This document shows positions 12,291 to 60,670 of a stretch of 64,000 nt of DNA, piece after piece. The stretch comes from Lytechinus pictus. Lineage: Eukaryota. A program made the translations under genes and the position numbers. The notes under the pieces were generated by a model. That model worked only from the letters and a program-made list of their open reading frames with translations, was not told the origin of the DNA and made no database searches. Within the stretch, counting starts at the first letter, position 1. Every line of letters starts with the position of its first letter. The DNA lies in the NCBI RefSeq assembly GCF_037042905.1, contig NC_087245.1:33048001-33112000 (forward strand), in the 5' to 3' direction.

Positions 12291-12826
12291 CTATCTAGGG
12301 CCTCTACAGGAACTGCAGCAATGTCTATCACAATTCATTTTCATAGAGCAGTAAAATAATAAGGTCTTTGCACATCATACTTTAATAAAATGCCATATTC
12401 TTCACAGCAAGATGAGCGATGACAAACAAGACTCATCACTAAGTGCTTTCTCCAAGCGTCAGCTTTCAAATTGGCAATCAAATCTTAACTGATCACTTAA
12501 CATTACTAATCAGCTCGAGCGAGAAATCAGAATAATTCATCTTTTTCCAAAGCTTTATACTCCTCCCCTTGATTTGTGTTTTAGATGTTGCTAGTGGATG
12601 AACAAATATGAAGGATGGTATTATGAATATGGAGGCTCTTATGTAAATATATGCACTTGATATTATCTTCCACGATTACTTGCATTGCCCGAATGAAATT
12701 TCATATTTTAATTTTTTAAGTGTCGCTCTGCGGTACTCGTCTCCCAGTAATGAGATTAAATGAGACTGGTGATCCCACTCATCACAGGTATAAACCCAAC
12801 TCCAATGGCAGAACAAGACTGTCATA

Positions 12827-13236
12827 GACACCGTTCTCACTACCGTTCTAAAACTAGGTTACTGGAAACTGTTTTAACGCATGAGAACAGTCGAAGTGGT
12901 CTTAGAAGTGACCTTCCCAACCAGTTCGGAAAACCACCTCTCAATGTAGTTTTCAAGATCGCTGTGCCTCGTTAAACTGGTTTTAGCATTTAAGTTAGGA
13001 TGCAACCGTTCTTCGGGAAGCATTCTTCGCACAATTTGAGTGTGCTACTCCAGACACTGTGTGTAGAATTTCTACACTGCGGTTTCAAATTTCGCGGGAA
13101 ACATGTCACCCCACTGAGAGCATTCCCATAGCAACAAGGCCACTTTACGTGAAGTAGTTTTGAAAACCACTTTCGGCTGATCAAATGGGAACGGTAGCAA
13201 AGCGATCTACTTTTAAAGTATAATGAGAACGGTGTC
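12827..13236 (+). mobile_element. PIF/Harbinger-type MITE, GACACCGTTCTCA family, copy 1
   Basis: TIR GACACCGTTCTCA / TGAGAACGGTGTC; homologous to 26134-26581 and 28109-28559. Confidence 0.88.
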
Positions 13237-16152: not shown

Positions 16153-18269
16153 TCTGCAGATAATTAACAGAAATACAATTTAGTCACAAGAAAGCCCACT
16201 CTCCTTTATAGCTTGCCATCCAGACAGAGTTTGGATATGTTCCATCATGGATGTCTTGTTTTTCTACATGTATGTAGGTGCTCTTGTGCCATTTCTAGGT
16301 AGGTACATACAAACCCATGAATAGTGTAAGTTTGGACCAGTGAGGACAGCCACTTGCTGAAATAGAGTACAATTAATGGCTCTAGATCATTTCTGTTTAC
16401 GTGGACAGGGTCCTACATGTAATTCTTGCTCACCCCCAATAGATTTGGCTCTTTACCACATTTCTGTCAATGTGATCAGGGTTCTATTTCTTTAGTGCTT
16501 ACCCCCATTTTCAATAGAGTATTGGCTCTATTCTGCATTATTTATGTCAATATGAACAGGGTTTTCTATTTCTCTTGCACTTACCCTCATTTTCAATGGA
16601 ATAATGGCTCTCCACCACATTTAGATCTGATAATGTAAACAGGATTTTCTATAATGACACACAACACACAGGCTTCTTCAGGAATAAACTGATACAGACG
16701 TCCATGCGCAACAACACGAAAGTTTGCGATAATGAAGGACAAAATTTTGCTATTTTTTTAATATAAAGTGAACAGACTTCTTTTGTTTGAAGAAAATATT
16801 AGATAGACAGGCACCATCACATATTGTGCTACCAGACAAATAAACATGAATAGCTATTTCCACACCATGGAAGGTTTGCATTCGTTGCCATGGAGACAAA
16901 GCAATGGACAATGAAATCTGACTACAGTTCCACAATTTAATGAAGAGTCCACTTGCTGAAATGGCATGCCTTTTCAAAATACAACAAAAGTGATCAAATA
17001 TGCAATTGAAATTTATTTAGGCTTTTGCACTTGCACCAGGTTTTTATTTGCACAGGTTAGCATAAACACAATACAGCTTATATAATCATCAAATACTGAA
17101 ATTCGTAAAAAATTTTCTTTTCTGAGTTCGCCCCAAGATCTGCCACACACAACATTCAAGAAAATTTACAGGAAAAGGATGGATAATTGGGTATCTTCCC
17201 ACATTAATAATGCGAGCGTGAAGCGTGGGCAGAATTTTTTTTTTATTCTGATCTGAAACTCTATAATTTAAGCACGTTTTAGATAAGAATAAGCTACGTA
17301 GCTCAATAAATATGGGCATGGTGATCTTTGAACTATCACTAAGCTGTTACTCTGTAGAAAAGTCGGGAACAAACTGTTTTCTGCCAGATCGAAATCCGGC
17401 TACTAGTATGTCTTTGTCTTATGGCCTACATGAGCGCATATGGTAATTCTCCTATGCAGAGCTACATGTACTTGGCTGTTGATGGCATGCAGGAAACCCA
17501 TATGCAGGAGAATGTCTTTGATGAATGCACAGGTGTGGTAGCGTACATGTGAACCGACAGAATGCGGTGCGACTGCGAGTAGGCCTATGGGGTCGGGCCG
17601 GCCGTTACTAGGCAGTAAATTAAACATGGGTGTAATACCTCCAATCTTACTTTTCTTTTTGTTTTTAAGCTTTTCAAGTTAAAAAAGACACATTTTTTTC
17701 TGCAGGTTGTCCCAAAATAAGCGGGGCGGGGCTGGCTCACCCCCCCCCCTAGTCTAGTTCTAGACGATATTAAACGAATCTATTTGCACCGATATATACG
17801 TTCTATTCCGTGCGTACGCCCAGCCGAGTGTGCGCGCAAAACCGAGAACATGTACTCCGAGAAAATATCGTCTAGAACAGTTGCTCAGCGGTGACGTCAG
17901 AGGTCAAAGGTCAACGGACGAGTGCTTCATAAATATGCATGAGTTACTTGTCAATCACCGCGCCGAACAACAGTGCAACCATGAAGCTATTACGTAATAG
18001 TTTTACGTTTTGCACATGTTATCAGCTGTGTGCATGCAATGTGCATAGCTTCATGCATTGTGCATGTGGGATTGATGTAATACACGGATATCAGTTCAGC
18101 TCGGCCAGAGTCAGGGAAGGATTTCTTGCTACCTATTAAAGTTAGTGCTAGCGGTACATGACAGGCCAATATTTTTTTTAATTTTTATGAAAATTTTCGT
18201 GTTTTCTCTTTCTTGCATGGTATTTGCAAGGGAGTAAAAAAAATATATGCATGGAAGAAATTGAAAAGA

Positions 18270-18578
18270 AACGAGTAGAGTAGGCCTATGTACGGAAAGG
18301 CAATGGAGGCTGAATATTAAAAGACAAGAGAGAAGGAAGATTAGTCGAAAGATGAAATAAAAAGGTAATACTGCATGAAGGAGGGAAATGCAAGGAGTGG
18401 ACATGCATATAAAAATAAAAGAGGGGGGATGAGGTCGAAGAGAAATTGAGAAGAAAAAGACTGGTGAAGAGGAAAAGGAGAAGAAAGTGAAAAAGAAAGA
18501 GAATTAGGTAACGAGTAGGGGAGAGAGAATTAAGAAAAAAATAAAAGTGTGGGAAAGGGGGGAAGGGCTGGAAGATAA
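18270..18578 (+). repeat. Purine-rich (GA) low-complexity tract
   Basis: Composition. Confidence 0.7.
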
Positions 18579-18919
18579 ACATTTTTTACACCAATACATC
18601 TTTGACGTTGTGCAGAATCCTGATAGGTGAAAAAATGGAGATAGATGTAAAAAAAAAAATCAAAAAAAATAACATGTTGGTGTTGTACTGTAAACATCCC
18701 TGTTCATTTTGTCATGGTAGCTTTGTAGGCCCTATATTCTCATGTAAACTGATTAATTGTAAACCTTTTTTGTTGAAATGCCGAATAAAATAATGATAAA
18801 GAAGAAGAAGAAAAGGATTGAAGAAGAAGAAAAAGAAGAAGGCGAAGAAGAAAAAAGAAGAGGAAGTAGAATATAACAAAAAAGCAGAAGAAAGGGAAAT
18901 AAAATGAGACCTCCATTAA

Positions 18920-19519
18920 AGGACAAGTCCATGCACCCCAACAAAAAGCTGATTTGAACAGAAAGAGAAAAATCAAACATGAATAACGCTGAAAGCTTCA
19001 TCAAAATCGGATGTAAAATAAGAAAGTTATGACATTTTAAAGTTCCGCTTATTTTTCACAAAATAGTTATATGCTCAACCCAGTGATATGCAAATGAGAG
19101 AGTCGATGATGTCACTCACTCACTATTTCTTTTGTTTTTTTTATTTTTGAATTATACAATTTTGCCTTTTTACGAATTTGGCAATTAGGACCCCCTTGCT
19201 TGAACCACAAAATGTTAAAATAATGGAATTCCATGTGTTCAGGGAGGAATTAAACTTCGTTTCACATGACAGTGACGAGAAAATCAAAATATTTCATGTA
19301 ATAAAATACAAAAGAAATAATGAGTGGGTGATGTCATCGGTTCCCTCATTTGCATACCGAACAGGGTGTGCATATAACTGTTTTGTGAAATTAAGCGAAA
19401 CTTTAAAATGTCATAACTTTCTTATTTTACATCCGATTTTGATGAAATTTTCAGCGTTATGCTTGTTTGATTTTTCTCTTTCTATTCAAATCAGCTTTTT
19501 GTTGGGGTGGACTTGTCCT
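18920..19519. mobile_element. Kolobok-type MITE (TTAA|AGGACAAGTCC...GGACTTGTCCT|TTAA) with ~220-bp inverted arms
   Basis: TTAA TSD, AG...CT termini, long inverted arms; relatives at 33250, 35604 and 50815. Confidence 0.88.
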
Positions 19520-20204
19520 TTAATGGAGGTCTCAGTTTATTTCCCTTTCTTCTGCTTTTTTGTTATCTTCTACTTCCTCTTCTTTTTTCTTCTTCTTTCT
19601 TCTTCTTCTTTATCATTATTTTATTCCGCATTTCAACAAAAAAAGTTTACAATTAAACAGTTTACATGAGAATATAGGGCCTATACAAGGCTACAATGAC
19701 AAAATGAACAGGGATGTTTACAGTACAAGTCCAAGTTGCCTGTGAAAGAAATTACTGGCGCAGGCTTTCCTCCCCGACCTGGACTTATAAGGTAACATAC
19801 ACAAGAATAAAACATATATATAAACTTTATATCAAACAATAATAATCTTAAACAATAGTATTTTTATTCTTAGTAGGAGAGGGGCCTGTTGCTACAGAAT
19901 AAATGAATAATAAATCAAAGTGTGTCCACTGACATTTTCAAAACGAGAATAAATATGATATAAACAACTGATCAACTGAAAAAGCAGATGCACATATATT
20001 AAATACAGTTTAAGTGGGGATGGGCATAATCCAAACCATAAATGCCCCCCACCCTAGCGAAAAAAAAACACAAGAGATAAATTTACCGCATGATGGACAT
20101 TTTTGTTCCACAACAGTATTGTAAATAATTAATTCACTACATCATACATTAAAAATAGTGGTAGTATATTAATATTTTGGCTTCATAACTTTAATATAAA
20201 TTTA

Positions 20205-20450
20205 ATTTGATTAGATTTGATTAGATTAGATTTATTTCCGTTTCACAATTGTACATGATAAACATAACATAACAAGGTCGAAAATACTGCAAGACAACAT
20301 ATAATATATATCTAACATAATTATAGATTTAAGTAACACAATTCAGTAAATAAAGTTATTTCAAATGACATTTGTATTTAAAAGTAAAACGGAGGGACTT
20401 GCCGAAAAAAGCAAAGCTTGTACAAGAGGCAAGCCCCTATCTTAGTTACA
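20205..20450 (-). mobile_element. LINE (CR1/L2-group) 3' end remnant
   Basis: Minus strand ends AATAAA-(TCTAA)n; a stem-loop segment GGGCTTGCC...GGCAAGTCCC lies upstream. Confidence 0.5.
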
Positions 20451-20652
20451 TTACAAAATTACAACAAATAGATATTGAGTCGTAATAATAATTTTGTTTA
20501 AAAATAGATACAAACAATTTTTGTGCACTTGACAAAAACGTAACTGATGGATCATGTGAGCAAAAATTACGTTTTATAATATTAGAAGAGAGGGGGAAGT
20601 TAGGGGGAGGAGACAGGAGGGACAGAGGTGTGCAGTACACTATAAACGCATA

Positions 20653-21084
20653 CCGCATACATTCGTAATTCCGAAGCTACGTTATTCCGAAGGTTCGGAT
20701 ATTCCGAAGGTTCGTTAATCTAAAAACGAAATAAGGTTCGTAATTCCGAAGGTTCGTTAATCCGAAAATGAAAGGTTCGTAATTCCGAAGGTTCGCTAGT
20801 CCGAAAACGAAATAATTAACGAACCTTATTTCGTTTTCCGACTAACGAACCTTCGGAACAACTAACCTTATTTCGTTTTCGGATTAACGAACCTAGTGAA
20901 CAGCGAACCTTATTCCGTTTTCGGATTATCCAACCTTCGGAAAAACGAACATTCGGAATAACGCCACAAATGTTCGGATTAACGAACCCTTTTACGTTTT
21001 CGGATTAACGAACATCGAGGTATAGGCAATTTGGAATTACGAACCTTCGGAATAAAGAACCTTCGGAATTACGAAGCGTAACCC
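20653..21084. mobile_element. Foldback-type MITE built of TTCGTAATTCCGAAGG subrepeats
   Basis: Left half has repeated TTCCGAAGGTTCG and right half the reverse complement CGAACCTTCGGAA; terminal IR TTCGTAATTCCGAAG / CTTCGGAATTACGAA. Confidence 0.85.
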
Positions 21085-21680
21085 TAAGTAGAATGAATAA
21101 GATAGAAGGCGGGCAGCAGGAACAGGTACTTTGGCTAATTGCAATTTTAAGAATAAAAAAATATAAAAGAAATAATTTACATGACTATATGTATTATGAT
21201 AAATTTATTTTATTTCAATCACTAAGAAAAAATAAAAAATAAAACGGTAAAAAAAAACACATGCCTACCATCCCTTATACCAACCATTTTAATTAGTAAA
21301 ATAAAAATCATTAACCATTTTAATCACTAAAAATATAAATCTAAGAAAACAAACATCTGCCTACCCTCCCCCTTTACCATTTTAATCACTAAATAAAAAT
21401 AAATTAGAAAACAAATAAACAACGTAGAAGCCCCGCCTCATCCTTTTATCATTCTAATCACAAAATGAAAAGTAAGATAAAAAACAACAAAGAATAAAGC
21501 AATGCTATTATTGAATCCAATCTCTATAAGAATGAGATTTTTTTTAAATACGGAATTAACAAGCCATGTTTCTCCCCTTTTATCATTATTCACTAAGAAT
21601 AAAAAATATAATAAATAAAAAGAGCCCCCCCCCCTTATCATTTCAATCACTATGAATAATTTATTCAATAAGAAATGAAA

Positions 21681-22825
21681 TAAAAACAAACAACAATGAA
21701 GCCCCCTTTATAATTTGAATCAATAAGATCATAATTTAAATAAAAGCAAACAACAATGAAGCCCCCTTTATAATTTGAATCAATAAGATCATAATTTAAA
21801 CAAGTGGAATGCCTCTGGCCGTCTCACCTGCATCACGCGATTCAATATAGCAGCAGTGCTGAGTTTGAAAACTACTATAACTCGCACAAGATGTTCAGTG
21901 ATACTTGGTTACTCTTATTTCCACGTTTTATGAACTAGACCAATACACTCATAGAGATATGATGGCAATTCAACAAATACCCCCAACGTGGCCAAAGTTC
22001 TTTGACCTTACATGATCTTTGACCTTGATCATGTGACCTGAAACTCGCACAGGATGTTTAGTGATACTCGATTACTATTATGTCCAAGTTTTATGAACTA
22101 GACCAACACACTTTCAAATTTATGGCTGTAATTCAACAAATACCCCAATTTGGCCAAAGTTCATTGACCCTAAATGACCTTTGACCTTGATCATGTGACC
22201 TGAAACTTGCACAGGATGTTCAGTAATACTTGATTACTATTATGTCCAAGTTTCATGAATCAGATCCATAAACTTTCAAAGTTATGATGGTAATTCAACA
22301 GATACCCCCAATTCGGCCAAAGTTCATTGACCCTAAATTACCTTTGACCTTGGTCATGTGATGTGAAACTCAAGCAGGATGTTCAGTGATACTTGATTAA
22401 CCTTATGTATAAGTTTCATGAACTAGGTCCATATATTTTCTAAGTTATGATGACATTTCAAAAACTTAACCTTAGGTTAAGATTTTGATGTTGATTCCCC
22501 CAACATGGTCTAAGTTCATTGACCCTAAATGACCTTTGACCTTGGTCATGTGACATGAAACTCAGGCAGGATGTTCAGTAATACTTGATTAACCTTATGG
22601 CCAAGTTTCATGAACTAGGTCCATATACTTTCTAAGTTATGCTGTCATTTCAAAAACTTAACCTCAGGTTAAGATTTGGTGTTGACGCCGCCGTCGCCGT
22701 CGCCGTCGGAAAAGCGGCGCCTATAGTCTCACTCTGCTATGCAGGTGAGACAATAAAAACAAACAACAATGAAGCCCCCTTTATAATTTGAATCAATAAG
22801 ATCATAATTTAAATAAAAGCAAACA
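21681..22825 (+). repeat. 60-bp tandem repeat x3, split by a HINE insertion
   Basis: Units at 21681-21740, 21741-21800 and 22754-22813. Confidence 0.85.
21799..22753 (-). mobile_element. Helentron-derived HINE/pearl-like element, full length
   Basis: Minus strand reads: subTIR GTCTCACCTGCAT with adjacent IR GTGAGAC, (GACGGC) microsatellite, 160-190 bp tandem core, 3' subTIR ATGCAGGTGAGAC, short hairpin, CTTGTT end. Inserted in a T-run. Confidence 0.85.
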
Positions 22826-23059
22826 ATTAATAAGCTCATCCACCCCTTTATTTAAATTAAAACAAAGAAGACCCCTCCATCGATCGTCGCACTTCATAAA
22901 AAATAAAACAATAGTATCGATAATGAGCGCGCGCGCGTGTTTTGCCAGCTGTCCGGAAATTAAAAGGTATATACTGTCCGAATACTGAAAAAGGGCGGAA
23001 GGGGTACGAAACGAGCGCTGTTACGCTCGACTCCGACGTCGGCAGGCCATGAAATGAAC

Positions 23060-24030
23060 ATTGATTGATTGATTGATTTTATTCGTCAAGAATATCACAG
23101 GAGATTACAATAAAATTGAGGAAATACCTTGACAGGATAGCCCATGAAAGCCGAAAGGCTTATTTCCAATGGGGTCCTATAGTTAGTATAAAACATTAAC
23201 ATATTGTAACAAAAAATATAAACTACGACAAGTACTGGAATATTGGGGAAAAAAAAAAATAAAATACATACAAAAATATCCATCAGTCATATAATTTGCA
23301 AACATCTGAAGCAAACAATAATCTTCCTAATATGTGAAACAAGATTATATTTTAACATACCCTAATGTATACATTATCTACAATACTAGAAACCAACTGT
23401 ACAAATGTGTTATTTTACTGGTAATGCTGTTCTTGGGCAGCTTCAAGTTTTAGGTGATTTTTTAATGCACTCTTAAATTGACAAAAGAATTTAACGGCTT
23501 TTATTTTTCAGGAAGAGCATTCCAAGATTGGATGCCATTAAAATAAAAAGTGTTTCCAATATGTCCTTCACGTTTTGGTAATACGAAATTAAAATTACTA
23601 TTTCAAGTATCGTACCTATGGATATTTGATACATGGGTGGAATTATTTGCTATATAATGATCTAATTTATCCGAATAGAATATTTTATGCACGTGGTGTA
23701 TTTACTAATTGTTGTGACCTGTGATCTACATAAAGCAATCCTGCCTTTTCAAGTTTATTATATCCGACATGTGCTCTTGGTCCTAAAACATTTATATATC
23801 TCACAATTTTATTTTGAATTATTCTTAGCTTTTTCATATCCGTATTAACACCCAGACTACCGTACCAAGCCGCATTAGCATAGTCGAATAAACATTGTAT
23901 TAACGCAAAGCATAAAATACGTCTAGACTTCATATTCAAACAGGTTTGATATCTATACAAAAATTTCAAGCGTGAATTAGCCTTTTTGGCGATTGAGTCT
24001 ACCAAACCCGTCCATGAAATCAATGCAAGA
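23060..24030 (-). mobile_element. 5'-truncated non-LTR retrotransposon (CR1/L2 group): degenerate RT C-terminus, 3' UTR and (ATCA)n tail
   Basis: Translation VDSIAKKANSRLKFLYR...ALIQCLFDYANAAWY...KLRIIQNKIVRYI is the typical post-RT region; AATAAAATCAATCAATCAAT tail at 23060-23083. Confidence 0.88.
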
Positions 24031-24634
24031 ATATTCTTTAGCACTTGGCAAGCATGGACCTGGGAAGCGGGGTGCTGGGGTACTAAAGCATCCCCAGAAA
24101 TTTTCCTGGGGGTGCTGCGTGTATTATTTTCCATAGGCAGCACCCCCACGAAAATCAGGTTCCTCCCTGTATATTTTTAAATATGTTATAATGTACATAA
24201 TTATCACATCCGACAATCGCAAATCGTTTTCATAGTCTTTTACATATTCCAATAACATCCCCCCTTCAGAATTTTCCTTTCCAGTACTTAAAATAGTGTT
24301 AAAATTCACCCCTTTTTCAGATCGGAATATCAAATATTTTCTCCTCGCGTTTCGCGCTCGCATTAGTGATTTTTATAATAAAAAAAGTGTATTTAGAATG
24401 CCCAGATATTAGGTCTAACTCTAAACACGCGCACGCATGTTTATTCAGATACACAGCTTGTTTTGGAGGTACTTCGGGCTGAAAATATGTATATTAAATA
24501 CATTTTTTCGAATTAAATACATTTTATGAAAATCTGATAACAAATAGTTAAGTTATTTAATTCTAAAGTTTAGCAATATTTTATGAAAATGGTGATATGC
24601 ATGTCGTCATTGATATATTTAATAGGTGGGTTGA

Positions 24635-24959
24635 CATGGGCGGAAATCTGTCCTCAAATGTAGGGGTACCGCGGGCCTGTAAAATTTGACAAACAAAAAA
24701 AAGGTTATCACCCTAAATGTAAGGACATTTTAACCCTAACAAAATTTGACAACCTCGATCCCCCCCCCCCCCACAAAAAAGGGTTTTCACCCAAAGTATA
24801 AGGTCATTTAGTCCAAAATACATGTATTATTTCTATTGTGAAGTGATGTATTTTTCTCCATGAAAGACCAAAATAGTAGGGGGACATTTGATATTGTGTC
24901 CCCCTACTATTTTTCAAGGGGGACACGTCCCCCTGTCCCCTCTGGGATTTCCGCCCATG
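24635..24959. mobile_element. hAT-type MITE inside a decayed Kolobok-type MITE (~24480-25150)
   Basis: TIR CATGGGCGGAAATC / GATTTCCGCCCATG; perfect 8-bp TSD TGGGTTGA. Confidence 0.92.
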
Positions 24960-26133
24960 TGGGTTGAAGATTTCACATCCCCACTATCCTGTTTCTTGTG
25001 TTATTACATGGAATCAGAATTGTTTCATTTTTTCATACAAGTGTGAATGATATGTCTCCCTTCTAATGAAATAAGATGCAGCAAAGAATATCTAATGGAC
25101 TAAATCAGTTGTCAATTCAACTGTTTTTTGTTCTTGAAGTGAAAATAATGAATAAACCTAATTCTATATAATAAATTCAGTTTCTTGCGTGTTTACCAAA
25201 TCAGCTAGTGCATACAAATTGAGGTCTAGATCACTTATCTTCGTTTGTTTTTTCATATATGGTGTGATGGCGACGGGAAATGAACGTCATGCTGTCAGAG
25301 ATTCCATCATGCATATGTCTAAACAGTTGGAAATAACGACTTTGAAGATCGCAAGAAAATGAATTTGAAAACCGCGCGCTGTATACAATACACAATACAA
25401 CCAGGGAATTGGGAGTCTCCCTGATACAACAGCACGGTACTGTACACAAGTCTATGGCTTATGTTGTGCTGCTTTGTGCGATCCGATTGATTATGTATGC
25501 CATACGATAGTCTACGCTTATAACCAATGTTGTAGGTATCAGGGGAAACATATACGATACGATTCATTTTTTATGTTTTTGTGTGTTTAATTTGATTTCT
25601 TTTATCAATTATTTATAACAAAAAGTCCCTTTTTAGGTAATTGATATTCATTTCATCGGTAGATCACATCATATTTCTCAACCCAGTAATCTTCCCTGCT
25701 GTTAACAAAGACTAGTGGCTGAACGGGAGGCGTGTCCACTTTTAACGACTTTCCCTCAAAAATCTGAGGGAGTGACGTCACCGCTGAGCAACTGTTCTAG
25801 ACGATATTTTCTCGGAGTACAGGTTCTCGGTTTTGCGCGCACACTCGGCTGGGCGTACGCACGGAATAGAACGTATATATCGGTGCAAATAGATTCGTTT
25901 AATATCGTCTAGAACTAGACTACCCCCCCCCCCTGGATCCGTACCTGATTAAAATTGCAAACTTTTATAATTTCTTTTTTCAACTCATTTCAAACATAAT
26001 CAGTTTCAGACAATATTTTAAATGGTGAACAATTAGCTGCATCTGGAACTCTATAAAAGAGTGGTATCTACATGTAGATAAAAGTTGGGTGACCTAAAAT
26101 ATGAACTATGAAGAGAATGAGTTAGCACACTAG

Positions 26134-26581
26134 GACACCATTCTCATTACGCTTTCTTAAACTAGTTTACTGGAAACCGGTTCAGGAAACCAGTTTGGAA
26201 TATCGCTTTACTAGTGTTCCCATTTGATCACACAAAAGTGGTTTTCAAATTCACTTCATGTAAAGTGATCTTGTTGCTATGGAAACACTCTCAGTGGGGT
26301 GACATGTTTCGCGTGAAATTTGAAACCGCAGCGTAGGCATTCTACACCCGTCGTGTGGAGTAGCGCACTCAAAATGTGTGAAGATCGCTTCCCGAAGAAC
26401 GGTTGCGTCCTCACTTACGCTAAAACCATTTTAACGAGGCAAAGCAATAGTGAAAACTACATGGCGAGGTGGTTTTCTTAACAGGTTTGGAACGTTCGAC
26501 CCTTCTCATTACATGTTAAACTAGTTTCCACTAAACTAATATCCAGTTAACTAGTTTTAGGAAGGTAGTGAGAACGGTGTC
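26134..26581 (-). mobile_element. PIF/Harbinger-type MITE, GACACCGTTCTCA family, copy 2 (inverted)
   Basis: Reverse-complement homology to copies 1 and 3. Confidence 0.88.
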
Positions 26582-27088
26582 TAACAGAGGACCTAGACAA
26601 GGCACCTCATGATTTCTTAAAATAACCCTTTAATTTGAAAAGTCCAGTTCAAAGGATTAGCCCATCATCAGGGACATCAATTGACCTTCAGACAACACTC
26701 ACTTTCTTAACAGAAGACCTAAACATGTAACTTGCTCAAAATGCATTTTAATTAGGTGAATAACCTGGCGAATGAGAGGGGAAATTGAATCAAGATCCAT
26801 CCCTTGACCACTCAGCGCACTTCTACAGTCATAATGTCCAGTTTTGGTCAGTGAGAGATCCTTATCCTAACTGTCATTACATGAACAGGACTGAAAATAA
26901 ATGTAGATCAGATACGAAGACCTTAGTCATCATGCCATCCGTTGGATCTGCTTCTACCCACTTTGTGTCTGCAGATAGCAAACATTTGTTGCCTTCCATC
27001 ATCAATCATAAAAGCACTAAGAATTTGATCACCATCAATTGGCGAAAGTGATGGGATGAATGAACACTGCGAAGGTTTAATAAACCAG

Positions 27089-27178
27089 GGGCCTATTTCA
27101 TAAAACTGCATGCTTAAAGCTATCGAAATCACTTGATTTGATTGGCTGATTGTAACAAAGTCTTTATGATACAGGACC
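27089..27178. mobile_element. Short CWG-TSD Harbinger-type MITE
   Basis: CAG flanks, imperfect IR, central GATTGGCTG. Confidence 0.55.
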
Positions 27179-28108
27179 CAGACAACAACACAGGGAAAAA
27201 ATACACTGGGGCTCGGGGGATTTTGCCACCCCCCCCCCCCCCGAAATGCTTAAAAGAGCCATGGAAAATAAAAAAGAGCCCCCCAAAATTCCCCATTCAC
27301 TGCAATGTTAAAGCTTAACCAATGTTGCAGATTTAGGTTATCAGTTTTGAAAGTAGCTCCCGTAAAGAAATGCCTGCAACATGATGCATGTAGCAACATT
27401 AAGCAGGGCCCGCTGGGAGAACAGTTTTAATATTAAACTGAAGTGGCTACCCTGGGTACCAAGGATTCTTGCTGTTAACAGCGGAAAGATATATATGTAG
27501 CGTACAACGTTAATATCAGTATAAAAGGGGCCTTAACACCTGTACATATGCCAATGTACTCTTCATGTGGCCTGCCATTTTCTCCTTTAATCCAAACTGT
27601 TGATATGTTCAATTCTTGATTTCAATTTCCAAGAATTGCACTTTGTAACAACACAAATATAGAGAATTCAAATTCTTTAATTTATGAAGAATCTTTTGTG
27701 ATATCAATAAACAGGATTAAGACATTTTTGCAGATTTGACAATAAGATGAAAAACAATAGGTTACAACTATGTCAATTCCTCATGCTATAGGGAGGAATA
27801 CATTTTTTTAAATATTACAATGAGGAAAATTTTTAAATATTTCATATTTTTTATTACAAAATACAAAACGGCGAGTGGGATATCATCAGTTCCCTCATTT
27901 GGAAACAGATCAGGATGTGCTCTGCACCTTTTTTGTTAAATTATGTGAATCTTTAAGATGTCATAAATTTCTTTATTTCAAATCTTATTATAAAAGTTTT
28001 TAGCTAGCGTGCTTGAATTTCTCTTCTTTATTTAAATCAACTTATTATTTGGGTGGACTTCATCCTTCATGTTTATGGTTAGGCACAGGGTGACATAAAA
28101 GACAGTTA

Positions 28109-28559
28109 GACACCGTTCTCACTACCTTTCAAAAACTAGTTTGCTGGAAACTAGTTTAACGTGGAGTGAGAACGGTCGAAGCGATCTTGGAAGCAATCTT
28201 CCAAACCTATTTAGAAAACCAACTCGCGATGTAGTTTTCAAGATTGCTTTGCCTCGTTAAACTGGTTTTAGCGTAAGCGAGGACACAACCGTTCTTCGGA
28301 AAGCGATCTTCACACATTTTGAGCGCGCTACTCCACATGACAGGTGTAGAATGCCTACGCTGTGGTTTTTCGAATTTCGTGCGAAACGAGTCACCCCACT
28401 GAGAGCATTTCCATAGCAACAAGATCGCTTTACATGAAGTGATTTTGAAAACCACTTCCGTGTGATCAAGTGGGAACGCTAGCGAAGCGTTCTTCCAAAC
28501 TGGTTTCCTGAACCGGTTTCCAGTAAACTAGTTCTAGAAAGCGTAATGAGAACGGCCTC
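28109..28559 (+). mobile_element. PIF/Harbinger-type MITE, GACACCGTTCTCA family, copy 3
   Basis: TIRs plus a TTA target duplication on both sides. Confidence 0.9.
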
Positions 28560-30772
28560 TTATTTGGTATACTTAGTATGGGATGGAGTATGAAGTAAAA
28601 GTGATTACAGAGTCGTTTCACAATTGAACTACATGAAGAAAAATATTGTTGATTTTTTTTAAAAGAATAATTCCATCCATTTAGGATTCGGGAATGACAA
28701 ATCAAGCAGTACGCAACTTTTTCGTACACCTCAACATGTTGATGAATCGCGATGAAACAATACTCAGACATCCTTGTTTCTAAGGTTTTGAATTTAATTG
28801 GTAATCTCACATTTTATAATTGAAGAAAGAAAAAAAAACAGCCTTTTGGCATAGGATCTCATCCTTCACTGAGTCACATTGTATGGCCTCTTGACCACAG
28901 AACTCATGTTCTCTCTCTCTTCTATTTTTCTCCGCGTTCAGACTATTATCTGAGAGGAAGGAAATAACCCCATTTGTATTCTCCTCTTTTCTTGTAATTT
29001 GAATGATTACAGAGAACTCTCAACAATAAGGAGTTCAGAGACAAATTCAGTGAGAGTGATCTTGCGTGTGGGGTCACAGTGCGAGATTTTACGTGTGCAC
29101 AAATTTAAATGTGTGCAGGAATGACGCACCATTCCAAGCTGTTCACCGTCTGAACATATCATTTTGAAATGTTCTTTCCACGGCTCTGAGTCTGCTTCCA
29201 AGCCTTGGTGACAAAACTGTGAGATCCTCCTCAGATAATAATGTATTGGAACCAAACTTGCTCGTAGAGAATGCATCTCACTCATTTGAAATCCACTTGT
29301 AAAATATCACTCTTCCACAATTGGTAATTTCAAAACTCTGGCCATTTATTTTTGTTATTATTCAAATTTAGCAGAGATGTGTATCTATTACTCTTCTTTT
29401 TTTCTTTTTTTCTTTGGAAAGGCTCTTTAAAGCATCCTTCAAATTTAGTGATTTAATATCTAAAAAAACTAAAAAGATTGTATCCTAAAATTTTCAGTCC
29501 ATATGCTTTGTTAAAGGTTTTATACTCCATGGAGTGGGCTTTCATGCTCTTCTTTCTTTAGACACTTTGTACATTGCGAAATTTCCCTGACGTATTTAAG
29601 TTTCTCTTACGTCAAAGCAACCTTTCTCCTTTCTCTTACATAATCGGCGTTTCCCAATAACTCCTCGTTAAATCCTGTCAAGATTCACCCACACCGCCTC
29701 CCTCCAAAGAACTCATTCTGATCTTTCAAACATTTATAATTTCTCCACTTCCTCACCGAACCTGGCAAGTCGTGAATCAATCACAATGTGCCCGACACAA
29801 ATATCAATGAATGAATCCCAGTTCCATTCAATTCCCAGCTTCCAGCTGTTTCTACAATTCTTTTATCACTTTAAATCATGAGATAATGCTATCTGGATTT
29901 TATCCAAACTTCATCAAGGATTTTTAGACATTTATTAACTGTTACTTTCCCCATATCTTGTCTTTGTTACTAAGTAATTAAGCTAATTATCATAATTAAT
30001 TTGAGCTATCCTCCTTTCTATTTGGGTTTTCTGCATATGCAAGTATGATGGAAAAATTATATGTTATTAATTCTTACAAATTATGTTAAATTCTTTTTAG
30101 TTTTTTTTTTGTAGTAAACATTACAGATTTTATACAATCTTCACAACAATTTGAATTCTAAGAATATACAAATGTAAGATATACATGTAGTTCTATAAAG
30201 GTGTTCAGAAGTTGGCTTATGAAATACAAAATTTCACTATCACAAAACTATTTTTCTGCAATATGAAAAATGAGACTTCAACATTATCATCTAAATCATC
30301 TTAATCAATTAACTTCTTATACAAAAATATCACTTTTAAAAGGAAAGCAATCTTCATTAAAAATATAATTATTCTGAAAAACCAGATTTCTCCTGTAAAA
30401 ATGTCTTGATTTTGTTCTATCTTCTTAGTAATTTAAGTCTTTGCAGTGATTACCATTCCTCACACCTACATTGCATCGTAATTTCCTATCCATTTTTATT
30501 TAACTCTAGAAAGTTTATGAAATACAAAGGATCATTAAACAGAACTTTCCAAATATCCAAACAGCAAATTGCTAATCAAATTTTAGAAGTAAAATTGTTA
30601 CCTGCCTTCATTATAATGAGTAATAATATTCTTCATAAAATTATCCACAATGATCATTCCCCTCCAGATATTTATATGACAAAGAAAAAGACTAATTATT
30701 ATCAGAACAGCAAAACTAACAAAAATCTCGAGAAAATTAGAGGGATCAAACAAGCCCACGCTAGTTACTTAC

Positions 30773-31100
30773 CACAATGCCATTTCGGGGACGATAATAT
30801 GAAGGTAAACGGGAGCCGAAAGTCCGTGACGGGAAGGCCGAGATGGCCTGCTGGGGGAGACGGGGCTCGTACATCCTCATTTCGAAGCCGAGCGACAAGT
30901 GCAATAATCCGAGATCCTACCACGGCTCCACAACCCCGCATTGATAGTGACCAAGCCCAACACTCTCGCTAAGTTCCCTAAACTTTGTTTGGCATCCCCA
31001 GCCAAATCCTACTGGCTCTACAGAACGTAATTTGCTGAGATTAGGTCGCAGCTGTTGCCGGCTAGCTGAAGTCCTCCTACTAGACGGACAATAAACGGTG
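30773..31100 (-). promoter_or_regulatory. CpG-rich alternative promoter / first exon ending ATGGCATTGTG|GTAAGT
   Basis: GC/CpG-rich island at 30780-31100 with a consensus donor TG|GTAAGT at 30773/30772. Confidence 0.5.
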
Positions 31101-38358: not shown

Positions 38359-39356
38359 AACAAGGCAAAAGCGATTTTGTGTCTCGCCCACTTATGAAAA
38401 TAACCAGAAATATCGTGATTTGCGAGGGCACGCAACAGAATTTTATCAAAACTTCATTGTGAAATGACTGGGATGGAATTACACTTGTCATAAGAGCCTC
38501 GCACGTAAACTTTAATGTTGACCTGAAAATGACCTTTGACCTTACCATATGACCTCTGACTGCAGCATAACATGCAGGTCGCCTAAGTACATCTACATTG
38601 TACCATCCAAGTTTTGTTGAAAAGTGACTTCCGGTTGCGGAGTTCGGTGTCATAAGAGTCTTGCATGTAAATTTTAATGTTGACTTGAAAATGACCTTTG
38701 ACCTAACCATGTGACCTCCGACTGCAGCATAACATGCAGGTCCCCCAAGTCCATCTACCATCCAAGTTTGGTTGAAAAGAGACTTACTGTTGCGGAGTTA
38801 GGTGCCATAAGAGAGTCTTGCATGTAAACTTTAACGTTGACCTGAAAATGACCTTTGACCTAACCATGTGACCTCTGACTGCAGCATAACATGCAGGTCC
38901 CCCAAGTCCATCTACCATCCAAGTTTGGTTGAAAAGCGACTTACGGTTGCGGAGTTAGGTGTCATAAGAGAGTCTTGCATGTAAACTTTAACGTTGACCT
39001 GAAAATGACATTTGACCTTATCATGTGACCTCCGACTGCAGCATAACATGCAGGTCCCCCAAGTCCATCTACCATCCAAGTTTGGTTGAAAAGTGACTTA
39101 CGGTTGCGGAGTTAGGTGTCATAAGAGAGTCTTGCATGTAAACTTTAACGTTGACCTGAAAATGACCTTTAATCTTACCATGTGACCTCCGACTGCAGCA
39201 TAACATGCAGGTCCCACAAGTCCATCTACCATCCAAGTTTGGTTGAAAAGCGACTTACGGTTGTGGAGTTATGTGTCATTACATGTAGGTTTGTGATGGA
39301 CGACGGACGACATTTGGATCCCTAAGTCTCGCCTTCACCTCTGGTGGGCGAGACAA
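38359..39356 (-). mobile_element. Second HINE/pearl-like family with a 157-bp tandem core (5 units)
   Basis: SubTIR GTCTCGCCCAC at both ends, adjacent IR, short GACG microsatellite, hairpin CAAAA-TCGC-TTTTG, CTTGTT end. Units recur at 38823, 38980 and 39137. Confidence 0.87.
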
Positions 39357-47970: not shown

Positions 47971-48230
47971 CAGTGGCGGATCGACGGGGGGGGGGGGGGC
48001 ATTTCCGGCCCGCCCCCCTTTCGAGAGTCATAGTCAATATTTTTAATGTAAATTTTATGTCGTTTATCGAATCAGTGTGCCCCCCCCCCCCTTTGAGATT
48101 CCCAGCAAATATTATTAATGGGAATGTGTCGTTCATACACACGTACAAAGGTAAGGACCCTTTTTTTATAAGGTTGTCAAATTTTCTTAGGCAAAATGTG
48201 CCCCATATTTGGAAATCCTGGATCCGCCTA
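47971..48230. mobile_element. hAT-type MITE (CAGTGGCGGATC family)
   Basis: Perfect 8-bp TSD GTTAAGGT; GGCGGATC / GATCCGCC ends. Confidence 0.9.
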
Positions 48231-51850: not shown

Positions 51851-52744
51851 CGCAAGAATATTTATATGTTTCGATTTTGCTCGCTTGCTGTAGATGTTGG
51901 TTCTTACCCCACAATAATTTTATGACGTTTATTTTGAATTTCCGAACCTGTGTAAGTACATTGTTACGGTTCTAGTCATTAGGGCGAAATAACCATCTAA
52001 ACACAATGGTTTCCCATCATAGATTAATTTTATCCACCTCTGTGACCCATTGATCAGCTGATCTGTTACTGTTAGATCAGTGTGGTTACCTCGGCGTATG
52101 TCGCTTGTCGCCCTCTACTGTTTAATTTCTTATATCCCTGCAAACTTTAGCTTTGTAAACGCCGTCCAAGAAGTGTGATGCAGATAATACTGGTAGCTTA
52201 TTCAACACCTGCGCCGGTTACAATTTAAAGTATATCTTCATTTTCACTAGCAACAAAAATACAAACCATCATTTTATTATATTAATTTAATTTATGTTAA
52301 AGATATGACAGAAAATAGAGTTCATTCGGAGAGGGGGGTATCGTGCTCAAGACGTCATTTTGGAGTAGTTTTAAAAGTTCATATTATTTGGTCTCCTCAA
52401 TCGCCAACCCGTTTACAATATTATCTTATTTATGTTGTAGATAGACCTTGCGACGGGTTTATTGTTCACTTATTTTTCAAAAATATACTGCACCAAAAGA
52501 TATACGGTAATTGTGTTGAAATATATAGAAAAAAAACCCCAACACAACAGCACCAAATTGGGCCATGCCTAAGCAGTGAAAACTGCACTATTTCGATTGT
52601 CTCACACTTGAGGCTTCTTCTGTTGTTCATCAGATTAGCATTTCTAGTCTTTTTCTTCAATCTTTTGCGCCTAATGAAAGTGACGGTTGGGGGACATGAC
52701 CCCTATAGGCCTTGCTATCTAGATTTCCCACTGGCAAACATCTT

Positions 52745-53530
52745 TACAATCACAATTTCAATGATTACTGTTACTGTTATCACAAAAACTAATATTTACA
52801 TCAATATCTTCAGCAGGACCATCATCAGGATCATTATCACCATCGCCGCCGCCACCACCTTCACCACCCTCATCATCATCACGTTTCAAGACCATCATCA
52901 CCAACATCATTATAAACACCATCACAATAATCATCACAATCATCTCCATTTAATCATCATCACCATCATCATCATCGCAATCATGTCTACTATGATCGCA
53001 ATTGATGACAATCACTATGTTACATATTCATCAGCAGAACTACTATCACTGTCATCATCGTCATCATTACAATCATCATTATCGCCAACACCACCACCAT
53101 CATCACACCCTCATCGTCATCATCATCATCACCATCATCATCATTGCTATCCTCATCCTCATCATCATCACTACCACCATCATCATCACCACCATCATTT
53201 TCGCCATCATCATCATTGCCATCCTCCTCCTTATCATCACTACCATCATCATCATAATCATCAGCATCATCATCACCACCATCATTTTCACCATCATCAC
53301 CATCATCATCATTATCACCGACACCATCACCATCAACATCATCATCATCACCACCATCATCATTACCATCACAATCACCATCACCATCATCATCATCACT
53401 ACCACCATCATCATCCATCATCATCTTCCTCGATCATCATCACCATCATCATCATCGTTATCACCGTTATCACAATCATCCATCTAATCCTGCATCTCAT
53501 CATCTTCACTATCAACATTATCTTCATTTG
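52745..53530 (+). repeat. (CAT/CAC)n trinucleotide microsatellite, ~780 bp
   Basis: Directly visible; explains the poly-His/Ile/Asp/Met ORFs in several frames. Confidence 0.95.
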
Positions 53531-53594
53531 ACTTTCAATCACTGTATGGATCACAATCCATCCATCAGATAAAGAGGAAAGTAAGAAACAAAAT

Positions 53595-57224: not shown

Positions 57225-57384
57225 TCAGGGTGTCTTGACTGATGATTTCGAGGCGGAGCCGAGCATTACCTTGGTAACAAAACTAACAATGGCGGAGGCG
57301 GGCTGCTCGACCTCCCAATCGGCAAAGAGATGGCACTGGTTGTCTGTCAGGCTGCCTGGCTTGCGGGCAACAAATCCAAAGATT
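57225..57384 (-). CDS. TNS: Tensin terminal coding exon: (K)[52 protein letters not shown]
   Basis: ttgcag acceptor at 57385-57386. FGFVARK..S.TDN.CHLFA....QPASAIV.FV.KVM is the tensin C-terminus; TGA at 57225-57227. Confidence 0.97.
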
Positions 57385-57752
57385 CTGCAAAACGGACAAC
57401 AAAGAATAAAATGACTTTTAATGAATGTTGATGGGCATCTACTCCTAGCGTGTGCACTATGTTAGCAATCTTTTTAGATTATATATTTTATATCATCCTA
57501 ATCATAATCACTATCTTAACACCCGTAACTGAATGCTTTAACATAATAAAACAAGTCGTAATTAATCTTGATTTCTCTTGATGAGAAATTAATATATACA
57601 CATAGACCTCTATTCAATTGTTGGATAATCGAAATAAACATTATTGATTTTGCATTTTGCTTTTCTTGATAAGAATTTAAGATTAACTTTCATTCTTTTA
57701 TCAACAAATCTTTCTTGTGTCTACTCCCATCCTAAAAGCCCAGCCGGATCTG

Positions 57753-58356
57753 GGACCCATTGAATAAAAGTTACCATTATGGTAAATTCCCGGGGGGGGG
57801 GGGGGGGGGGGGGGTCACTCTCCACATGGACTGCTACCCACCCGTGTCCGACAACCTCAGAAATGCACCCTAAACGGCGTAATGACATTATGTAAATTTG
57901 CAACCCTAAACGGCGTAACCCATGAGAAAAGCTACCCTAAGTGGCGTGAACGGGGAAATCCCCTAATTTGATACCCTAAGTGGCGTAAACACCAAAATCG
58001 ATTAATGTGATACCTGTGGACCGTGTGGGTAACGCATGCTGCCTAGTATAGAGCCAGGTGTAAGAGACTAGCTAGAACTGTACGGGGGTACGGGAGCGAA
58101 TGGTGCTGAAATGCAACCCTTTTTGCCAAAGACGTCAACGCCGCCCGAGTGCCTGAAACGGGACCCTTTTCGACGCTTTTTCCAGACGCGGTTGAGTAGC
58201 AGGCCATGTTGAGAGTGACCCCCCCCCCCCCCCCCCGGCGGTAAATTTGCCATGCAATGTTAACTTCCATGGAATCCTTGATTATGATTGGCCGTTGATC
58301 ATCGTTACCATTGGATGGCAAAGTTACCATAATGGTTACTTTTATGCAACGGGGCA
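57753..58356. mobile_element. Harbinger-type MITE in the last tensin intron, interrupted by a hAT MITE
   Basis: CTG duplication; homologous to 7492-7650. Confidence 0.85.
57789..58239. mobile_element. hAT-type MITE with poly-G/poly-C termini
   Basis: CCC(G)nTCACTCTC ... GAGAGTGA(C)nGGC; perfect 8-bp TSD GGTAAATT at 57781-57788 and 58240-58247. Confidence 0.92.
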
Positions 58357-58433
58357 CTGTCCCTGATTCAGACTTGATAATAATTTAACCTTTGCATGTG
58401 AAATATACAATTTAAATGATAGAAATAACTTAC

Positions 58434-58472
58434 TTCGCGTCAGCTACTTCTTGGCCTTCTCTCCTTGGGTAT
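58434..58472 (-). CDS. TNS: Tensin PTB small exon: (K)YPRREGQEVADA(K)
   Basis: tttttcag acceptor, GTAAGT donor, 39 nt, phase 2-2. Keeps the frame and fills the loop between DP.RK and IFGFVARK. Confidence 0.85.
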
Positions 58473-58734
58473 CTGAAAAATAGAACAAAATATTTAAATG
58501 GTGTTAAAGAAAAAATTTCTACAGCAGCTGGGTAACCTTACAAATATGTACATCTAAACCCCTCAAACAGGGACATTCCTAATATCATTTGTGTTTTCTA
58601 GATCATTTGAAATGTTGTAATGCGATCAAACTATGTGATGCTTTGAGCATCATAGTTTGAAACCAGAATAGCTTTTCTGCAGTTAGAGTGGACAGTATGT
58701 ATAAGAATCATTTCATGAATTTAGAAAGACTTAC

Positions 58735-58803
58735 TTTCTTGTGAGTGGGTCCATTCCACAGAAGAGGATTGACTTGACAGGGTAGTGCTTTCTGAAGAAT
58801 AAC
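58735..58803 (-). CDS. TNS: Tensin PTB domain exon: (K)LFFRKHYPVKSILFCGMDPLTR(K)
   Basis: ttgtcag acceptor, GTAAGT donor, 69 nt, phase 2-2. Matches tensin KLFFRRHYP..S..FC..DP. Confidence 0.96.
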
Positions 58804-59390
58804 CTGACAAAAAGACAAATAAAAACAAATATAAATAATGATGATGCAGATGCAGATCCCCAACAGGGATATAGTCAAGGCCAGGAATTCTGAGTCAGGA
58901 TGCCGCTAGAGAATAATTTCTCCCAAGACTCTGCCCAATGCCAATTCCAAGGCCAGCAAAATGTGGCCGAGGTTAGCCTTGGCTACATACCCGATCCTCG
59001 ACAAAAGAAGAAGAAATTTGGCATCCATACCAACTTAATGAGCAGGACACAGATGAAACCAGATCATTCCCTTATCACTCTTAGAAAACCCAATTGCAAT
59101 GGGCACCACATGACAACATTCATTTTCCATATTTCAAGTGCAAGAAAAGAACAGGCAGAAACTCGAAACTAGAAAATAAGTCAACTTGTCAAAAGTCTGA
59201 GCCACATTGTTGAGCAGGAATCCCACTGTGAGGATGCTACACAACTTTTCAATGCAGCTTTCCTGCAGTCCCAAATGTTTTTTCTATTTGTGATTATGAT
59301 GATTTGTTATGAACGACTGCTTGCAGGATTCCTGCGGGGGAAAGACTTCTGACAAGGTGCCTTAAAGGAGCTGATTGCATCGCGACTTAC

Positions 59391-59559
59391 TTTCTCTGTG
59401 TATCTGTGAGGGTGATTCCTTTGGAGGACACCTTGAAGTGGACGACAACAGCCTCGGGTTTCTTCTTGGCAGTCAATGTCTTGGTCAAGCCTTCTCGTAT
59501 AGCCTCAGTCCCCGTCAAGGATTCCATGTCAACGCTGTCGATGTACAACACTTTGCACG
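59391..59559 (-). CDS. TNS: Tensin PTB domain exon: (A)[55 protein letters not shown](K)
   Basis: cccag acceptor, GTAAGT donor, 169 nt. Carries the tensin-PTB hallmarks SVDMESLTG and [14 protein letters not shown]. Confidence 0.97.
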
Positions 59560-60670
59560 CTGGGGAGGCAAAAGAAAGCAAAAGGATATGTAATTTAAAT
59601 GAAAAGAAAGTTTCACCCAAAGGCAAGTATTGCAATGAAGAAAGGTGATTTCCATGAGCCTGAAAAAGAGGAAAGGCCACAAAGACTACTCAGAAGTCTT
59701 CGAACTTGATCTAATTTACCATGTCAAAACAGATTTGGTCTACTTAAGTCCCCATCATTCAGTCCAATCATCACTTTTTCTAATACTCAGTAAGACTAAT
59801 TATAATTGTGTCTAGTGATAAGAAACTCTAAAAAAAAATTTAATGAGAACCTAATATTCTCATTATGTCTGATGTAGGATTTAGTCAAAGAGAAGTGAAT
59901 ATTACTAGAGCTTAGACAAAATGGAGTTGGTGTCACATGGTAATTAGACCAATTGGTAATTTGAAACAAAAAGAACCCTGTTTTTTTGATGAGGTGGGAC
60001 TTCAACGAGTAGACGTTCACCTGCGATATTATCTTAACCAATTACCTTCATTGTCAACTTCAAATACCCTGTAAGGTCTTACATCACTTATACATAGATT
60101 TCAATATCATATGACCTTAACGAAATGATTGATTTTGTCACCACTCTGAGAAATCATTTGAAATGACAGAATTCAGAATCCCATTAATGAAAGGAAATTG
60201 TACCCAGCTGAGGTTGAATGGAGTTTTTGTTTGACGCTTGTAACTGCACCTTCAATCAATAAAGGTCATTAAAATGACCCGATAATAAATATATGGTTGA
60301 ACCCGTCTACAAACATGCCGATTATTACTTTAAATAAAGTACTTAAGTTCTTTTTAATCTTAAATAAGAAGTACTGTGAAAATTATATAATCAGTCCATT
60401 TCCAATGAATTTGACCTCGTAAATACCTCAATGTGAAATTAAAGATTAAAGTGATCAAAATGTACATGTATATGAAATGATGTGACAAGCTAATTCACAT
60501 GACTCATTACTTGGGTGAACTACACTTCATAGAATTCTGCGCAAACAACTCAACCCACTTTTTATTATCCTAAATTCAAAGTAAAACTTAAACCTGACAA
60601 AATATCAATTTCATCAATTTGGCAGGGGTTCAATAAACTTTTATGATCAAGGCTGTTCCATTGATCTTAC

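Follow-up and report, generated by a model that had tools for sequence, protein, structure and literature searches.

The AcademH lineage of Academ transposons is said to have been described by Kojima (2020, Mob DNA 11:15). In regard to target-site duplications (TSDs), the part of PMC10045372 considered here gives 9 or 10 bp for AcademH and 3 or 4 bp for AcademX, and no description of how Academ elements transpose was found in the portions of the literature searched. For the Pack-TIRs of animals, named after their terminal inverted repeats (TIRs), Tan et al. 2021 (PMC8277862; here and below the excerpted sections) assigned 323 of 370 cases to hAT or Tc1/mariner, and multicopy cases were rare (4/370). 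Non-autonomous elements can be classified by a Repbase rule, given in the consulted text of PMC4455052 as termini within one mismatch of a known member over positions 1-11, plus the same TSD length. Here we describe an element of 8,173 bp (17750-25922) in a stretch of 64,000 nucleotides from Lytechinus pictus (NCBI RefSeq assembly GCF_037042905.1, contig NC_087245.1, positions 33,048,001 to 33,112,000 of the forward strand), which is referred to as the window and whose own numbering is used throughout.

The element is a real, young, recently inserted and gene-less element of Academ type, an example of a known phenomenon, and it is probably polymorphic at this site. Furthermore, we find it probable that it represents a non-autonomous Academ element that reached the site together with most of its interior, its mobilisation in trans being most likely due to an AcademH partner. 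The locus was compared with contigs of four runs of 24 listed, including X1 (organism A), X10 (organism B) and X19 (organism F). The features recognised are as follows, with the strand given where assigned.

17723-25947: end of a host sequence resembling a miniature inverted-repeat transposable element (MITE), split by the insertion (17723-17749 and 25923-25947) and representing the insertion target; look-alike at 47989, minus strand
17740-17749: left C-run (10 C), carrying the left copy of the TSD
17750-17899, plus strand: left TIR of 150 bp, with the TAG end, TTGCA at 35-39, a 15-bp site at 8-22 found inverted again at 115-129, and TGACGTCA at 143-150
17900-18676: left subterminal region, with AGGTCAAAGGTCA at element position 152 and a purine-rich tract
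18677-19734: foldback, low-complexity outer arms around a TTAA-flanked MITE
18920-19519: TTAA-flanked MITE, with relatives in the window at 72-86% identity
19735-20199: spacer without match elsewhere in the window, with a 93% identical homologue in X19 (19894-20030)
20200-20450, minus strand: probable 3′ end of a long interspersed nuclear element (LINE), with a microsatellite tail by eye, without protein match, limits approximate
20650-21085: MITE of 16-, 39- and 42-bp repeats in inverted arrangement, no TSD by eye
21679-22826: tandem-array element (21800-22751, 163/192-bp repeats) with flanking duplication, 90% identical to a copy at 33.8-34.7 kb
23050-24035, minus strand: 5′-truncated LINE, consisting of the 3′ tail and the C-terminus of a reverse transcriptase (RT) protein (23418-24035)
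24635-24959: MITE with short TIRs and an intact 8-bp TSD
25389-25772: right subterminal region, family sequence rather than cargo, with TIR-joined relatives in X19 and X10 (~95% identical)
25773-25922, minus strand: right TIR of 150 bp
25923-25933: right C-run (11 C), carrying the right copy of the TSD

Ends of the element and insertion site

The two inverted TIRs are identical at 149 of 150 positions, with a sole mismatch at position 101 (A vs. C), and their likeness breaks off sharply at position 151. The termini read TAGTCTAG...CTAGACTA and thus form a TAG..CTA pair, as known for Academ elements. A preceding reading of the locus, made from the sequence only, had described the paired 150-bp TIRs with one mismatch, the TAG..CTA termini and C-runs on both outer sides, and all of these were seen on re-measurement. 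When up to three mismatches are allowed, the terminal 17-mer occurs at two sites in the window, which are both ends of the element; 0.05 sites are expected, and two were reached in 0/100 shuffles.

Within each TIR, the 15-bp word at 8-22 returns inverted at 115-129, and an inner inverted repeat of at least 15 bp was reached by 11 of 2000 dinucleotide shuffles, self-palindromes included. The inner copy is devoid of the terminal 7 bases, and the identity between the TIRs extends 21 bp beyond it. Folding of the whole TIR into a stable single-strand hairpin was considered and rejected (z -1.63, with 13 of 200 shuffles folding equally well), and the TIR had no match in Rfam. Because the single-strand folding of the TIR is not unusual, we interpret the inner repeat as a putative second binding site facing the outer one. 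Both ends of the element are alike in the short TTGCA spacing (35-39) and in the TGACGTCA word (143-150), which is perfect and closes both TIRs, with AGGTCAAAGGTCA following it at the left end only (17892-17913). Two features of the ends are odd, the inner inverted site in each of them and the short type being common to both. We take TGACGTCA and AGGTCAAAGGTCA to be CRE-like and nuclear-receptor-like sites, respectively, resembling those of host transcription factors. The insertion places them beside a candidate promoter region, and by eye similar motifs are present in some bivalve Academ ends. The TIR pattern was also encountered at 20 loci of metagenome contigs and at 2 loci of viral contigs; all 22 were regarded as chance occurrences, and none showed TIR likeness past the pattern, had a second end or contained an inner repeat.

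When the flanks of the element are rejoined, they look like one further MITE-like end of the window, located at 47989 on the minus strand, and no partner end of the interrupted host MITE was found upstream. The proposal that excision would restore a host MITE end is in keeping with this look-alike.

Superfamily assignment

Termini were compared with the first ~400 bases of entries in the curated bivalve library of PMC10294476 (supplementary file 31), from which 37 of 100 Academ and 28 of 39 Mutator-like element (MULE) consensuses were viewed. As all 100 Academ entries are labelled Academ-1, the file cannot separate Academ lineages, and the comparison covers the first end of each entry. TAG starts were found in 34 of the 37 Academ consensuses and TAC in 3/37, and the consensuses opening with TAGTCTAG were Academ in all six cases. 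Two consensuses from M. mercenaria agree with the element over positions 1-11 with one mismatch, which lies within the terminus limit of the Repbase rule, the TSD of these bivalve elements not being given in the file. In contrast, 27 of 28 viewed MULE consensuses are G-initial and none is TAG-initial, a pattern from which the element deviates. The ends are thus supported as being of Academ type over MULE, based on the curated consensus termini viewed, with TAG in most of Academ and none of MULE, and the preference for Academ expressed in the sequence-only reading agrees with these counts.

By eye, TTGCA is present in several of the bivalve Academ entries, with about five having it at 35-36 and three at 46, a distance of 10 bp, and the chance of finding this word within three positions in the element described here is ~0.5%. 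In some of these consensuses, also by eye, TGACGTCA lies near 135-150. No Academ entry was found in the supplements of PMC8969392. In regard to the lineage, the element is probably AcademH-driven, as judged from the 9-10-bp duplication deduced below, with which the earlier attribution to AcademH is in line.

Empty sites and age of the insertion

Run X1 derives from a sister species, with flank pieces ~94% identical to the window (31/534 differences). Its record 6 aligns to 25922-26058 from its 83rd letter, with an A and 11 C followed by the right flank, while the 82 preceding letters do not follow the TIR. Since an A also stands ahead of the left C-run at the element site, this is the pattern expected from an empty site, and we firmly regard the X1 site as empty (A + 11 C). 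The flanks of X19 are far closer to the window, differing at 13 of 1611 bases (0.8%). Here record 17 ends at 17749 and leaves two letters unaligned, and record 24, which begins at 25923, leaves one. A filled site would continue into the TIR, which these contigs do not, and this fits a single run of at least 12 C. It is therefore probable that a near-identical haplotype represented in X19 is empty at the site. The recent insertion suggested previously, together with the empty-site check proposed for it, is in this way supported by contigs devoid of the element in X1 and probably in X19.

The C-runs also provide an estimate of the duplication, as the 21 C at the element site minus the 11 of X1 give 10 bp, and minus the at least 12 of X19 give 9 or fewer. 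This implies a duplication of 9-10 bp, in the AcademH range, with the count read from contig ends and blurred by the homopolymer. A 3-4-bp duplication of AcademX type would require an ancestral run of 17-18 C and is disfavoured by the 11 C of X1 and at least 12 of X19.

TIRs of cut-and-paste elements, unlike long terminal repeats (LTRs), are not reset at each jump. The age of the interior relative to the insertion can be approached through the outer arms of the foldback, which show 7 substitutions in 204 aligned bases (3.4%) plus 2 indels, a divergence exceeding that of the X19 flanks (13/1611; Fisher p 0.004). If X19 is empty, the insertion would be younger than the 0.8% haplotype split, and with arms 3.4% apart the foldback would predate its arrival.

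Interior and coding capacity

Seven recognisable nested pieces account for ~4.1 of 8.2 kb, about half of the interior. The TTAA-flanked MITE at 18920-19519 is presumably of Kolobok type, judging from its hallmarks and with no database match. It lies precisely in the middle of a palindrome whose arms of ~210-240 bp are low-complexity DNA of ordinary appearance (18677-19734), and such foldback arms were not found around the other copies of this MITE in the window. The MITE either targeted the centre of a hairpin or caused the inverted duplication of its own flank. Likewise from their hallmarks, and again with no database match, we take the tandem-array element (21800-22751) to be HINE-like and the MITE at 24635-24959 to be of hAT type. 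Three near-identical 60-bp units flank the tandem-array element (21679-22826), a possible long duplication associated with its insertion. The best of the RT-protein matches of the LINE stub reaches 86%, and the stub carries 2 frameshifts and 1 stop in 620 bp, with an extra base at 23701 that is absent in 4/4 runs. The decayed Kolobok MITE of the sequence-only reading, near 24.5 kb, is supported by a single weak match (72% over 81 bp, E 1e-4). In view of these observations, the foldback and the LINE stub look older than the insertion, and the tandem-array element may be young. The interior seen earlier as a mosaic of older pieces accordingly holds for the LINE RT, the TTAA-flanked MITE, the MITE with the 8-bp TSD, the tandem array and the foldback as constituents, and is qualified by an exact 75-bp duplication that looks young.

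The longest frames in the element are 172 and 163 aa, the latter corresponding to the LINE. Neither a transposase nor a helicase, host domain or exon was recognised in the interior in 35 of 114 frames compared with Pfam and 6 frames compared with NCBIfam, in agreement with the previously stated lack of an intact transposase open reading frame. The scanned frames thus do not encode the transposase and helicase that characterise an autonomous AcademH element. A helicase relic was considered at 25267-25507, where two short plus-strand frames had, by eye, the look of a degraded helicase start with RecQ-like motifs, and it was dropped for want of support: these frames found nothing in Pfam, NCBIfam, a homologue search, representatives (0) or Atlas (searched twice), short queries of this kind having little power, and their best match in PDB was unrelated (E 0.39).

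Relatives in other runs

Two contigs span the border between right subterminal DNA and TIR, one of 457 bases in X19 (record 23; 25389-25836, 20 differences) and one of 412 bases in X10 (record 15; 25502-25876, 19 differences). As both cross this border, ~380 bp inside the right TIR are family DNA, and the TIR is more than just a solo unit. A relative of left subterminal DNA (18244-18411) is present in X19 with 7 differences. In X10, six contigs match at 95-99%, covering the LINE-like stretches 20230-20537 and 23060-23890 as well as 25502-25876 at the right end; depths are 7.8-9.4 in five of the six, and the pieces are not bridged. Such matches could stem from a related composite, from horizontal transfer, or from minor foreign DNA in the run that yielded consensus-like contigs.

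Depth in X19 is ~12-15 at five low-copy places of the element, compared with 2.3-3.8 for the flanks, a difference that several copies with cargo could account for; as depth does not translate into copy number and the type of library is unspecified, it was not counted as evidence. Likewise, no conclusion was drawn from uncovered parts (18124-18495 and 25192-25563 in X1, the flanks and left end in X10) or from the lack of a 99% donor in X19.

Surrounding sequence

Candidate minus-strand exons with ATG and phase-0 donors flank the element at 30880-30773 (CpG-rich) and 13789-13721. A homologue search with the former (30773-30910) found nothing, and the latter is too short to search. Their placement would be compatible with the putative intron between alternative promoters suggested by the sequence-only reading. 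Further away, 57270-59659 on the minus strand holds the last exons of a gene with a PTB domain (Pfam E 4e-11), presumably tensin-like. A second, older foldback adjoins the element at 26131-28562, with arms of ~440 bp, 45 mismatches and a related copy at 12815-13208. The window also contains a 163-bp tandem array with ~92% identity (38486-39279) and a long CAT/CAC microsatellite producing spurious long open reading frames (52251-53572).

Origin of the element

In regard to the mechanism that could have led to the observed structure, a partner transposase would bind each end at the outer site with its TAG terminus, probably aided by the inner inverted 15-bp site, and would excise all DNA between the outer termini. 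It would then insert this DNA, in the present case into the C-run of a host MITE, with cuts staggered by 9-10 bp. The foldback, LINE stubs, MITEs and low-copy spacer would have been gathered earlier, by nested insertion into a parent copy or by capture, so that the 8-kb interior and the ends would arrive as a single piece, of a size nearly reached by autonomous Academ elements. A later arrival may apply to a few of the pieces, the tandem-array element among them.

Several observations weigh against this interpretation. No AcademH partner and no second full copy were seen, no genome-wide search for the partner or for the TIR having been made, and none of the contigs in the runs compared bridges two interior pieces. 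For these reasons, the movement as one unit proposed by the sequence-only reading stays at the level of likely. Among the joints listed, none explicitly connects 17749 to 25923, the unaligned letters of the empty-site contigs are known by count and not by sequence, and the duplication falls inside a homopolymer. The duplication around the tandem-array element is identical at 75/75 positions, and this piece looks young. Compared with the sister-species flanks (31/534), the divergence of the foldback arms gives p 0.26, the interior not being older than the split, and the TIR pair compared with the same arms gives p 0.08, which makes TIR identity alone a weak clock; the age argument consequently leans on X19. 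If the interior aged within the lineage, about 5 TIR mismatches (5.1) would be expected and 1 is seen (P 0.036). Such a deficit could arise if selection for mobility acted on the TIRs, if the ends were homogenised, or if old DNA was captured recently.

Alternatively, a small young Academ element could have broken internally and been repaired in place by copying in old DNA (~6-7 kb) of a different locus, in which case the interior never transposed. According to the sections considered of PMC8277862, single-copy Pack-TIRs of animals arise mainly by such gap filling; this route would explain near-identical TIRs around old DNA with no extra assumptions and accords with the single full copy seen. 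However, in the same sections 160 of 281 donors lie within 15 kb, and no donor DNA for the spacer was found elsewhere in this window (~17 kb to the left and 38 kb to the right). The listed homologue of the spacer in X19 is 93% and not ~99% identical, and none of the 3 X19 contigs agrees with the window at 19929. We consider gap filling unlikely. An ordinary nest, in which a small element inserted soon after the sister-species split, repeats gathered in place and the TIRs are alike by chance or conversion, seems to us more doubtful. The 5-6% divergence of the sister species allows time for arms 3.4% apart, the X19 empty site depends on two contig ends, and one interior insertion looks young. 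Conversely, both X19 flank contigs, from a haplotype 0.8% away, end in the C-run without entering the TIR, and the mismatch deficit of the TIRs speaks against ageing in place as well.

Each 150-bp TIR with its inner inverted site could also be a mini-element, with two of them bracketing host DNA. The inner repeat itself points in this direction, and KolobokP provides a eukaryotic precedent for composite-like ends in the available part of PMC9587614. On the other hand, the missing terminal 7 bases of the inner site, the 21 bp of TIR identity beyond it, the relatives in X19 and X10 in which this subterminal DNA also adjoins the TIR (records 23 and 15) and the lack of a solo TIR copy in the window render such a composite highly improbable. 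Equally hard to sustain is a MULE-type pack element, to which long TIRs and a 9-10-bp duplication would apply too, given the absence of TAG starts among the viewed bivalve MULE consensuses.

It is also conceivable, although rather unlikely, that the non-autonomous Academ element belongs to a small family of AcademH cargo carriers, with symmetric two-site ends, helicase-assisted moves of multi-kb old repeats as a unit and homogenisation of TIRs, for example through a single-stranded panhandle, the same composite perhaps having spread to organism B. TIR homogenisation during transposition would explain one mismatch in 150 bp around cargo that is 3% old. A young copy with intact ends offers a defined substrate, in which a 150-bp end combines the outer site with the inner inverted one and with motifs like those of host factors. 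If the cargo moved as a unit, such elements would provide a route for relocating whole nests of retroelements and DNA elements in animal genomes; if gap filling or a nest produced the structure, it would be an ordinary case.

Comparison with known systems

Similarly to the Pack-TIRs in the sections considered of PMC8277862 and to the Pack-MULEs of plants, the element is a non-autonomous TIR element with foreign DNA inside. It differs from Pack-TIRs in that no host gene fragment was found, no parental copy is present in the window and the cargo consists mostly of other repeats. The designation as a pack element applied earlier is thus justified by the foreign interior and, for lack of a host gene fragment, applies only loosely. 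KolobokP, as presented in the excerpt of PMC9587614, shares long terminal units with their own short inverted repeats of up to 18 bp; its units, however, are direct repeats of ~450 or 660 bp and move alone, whereas those described here are inverted, measure 150 bp and have an inner site without the terminus.

The bivalve Academ consensuses viewed in PMC10294476 resemble the element in the TAGTCTAG(T) start, in the placement of TTGCA and, in some of them, in TGACGTCA near 135-150, the difference being that they are autonomous. With AcademH, according to the parts consulted of PMC10045372 and PMC10799480, the element has in common termini of the TAG type, as in curated Academ, and a length near the upper end of the range of autonomous Academ elements, the bivalve Academ mean being 5,565 bp, and it would share the deduced 9-10-bp duplication. 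It differs in carrying neither transposase nor helicase and in having an interior made of nested repeats.

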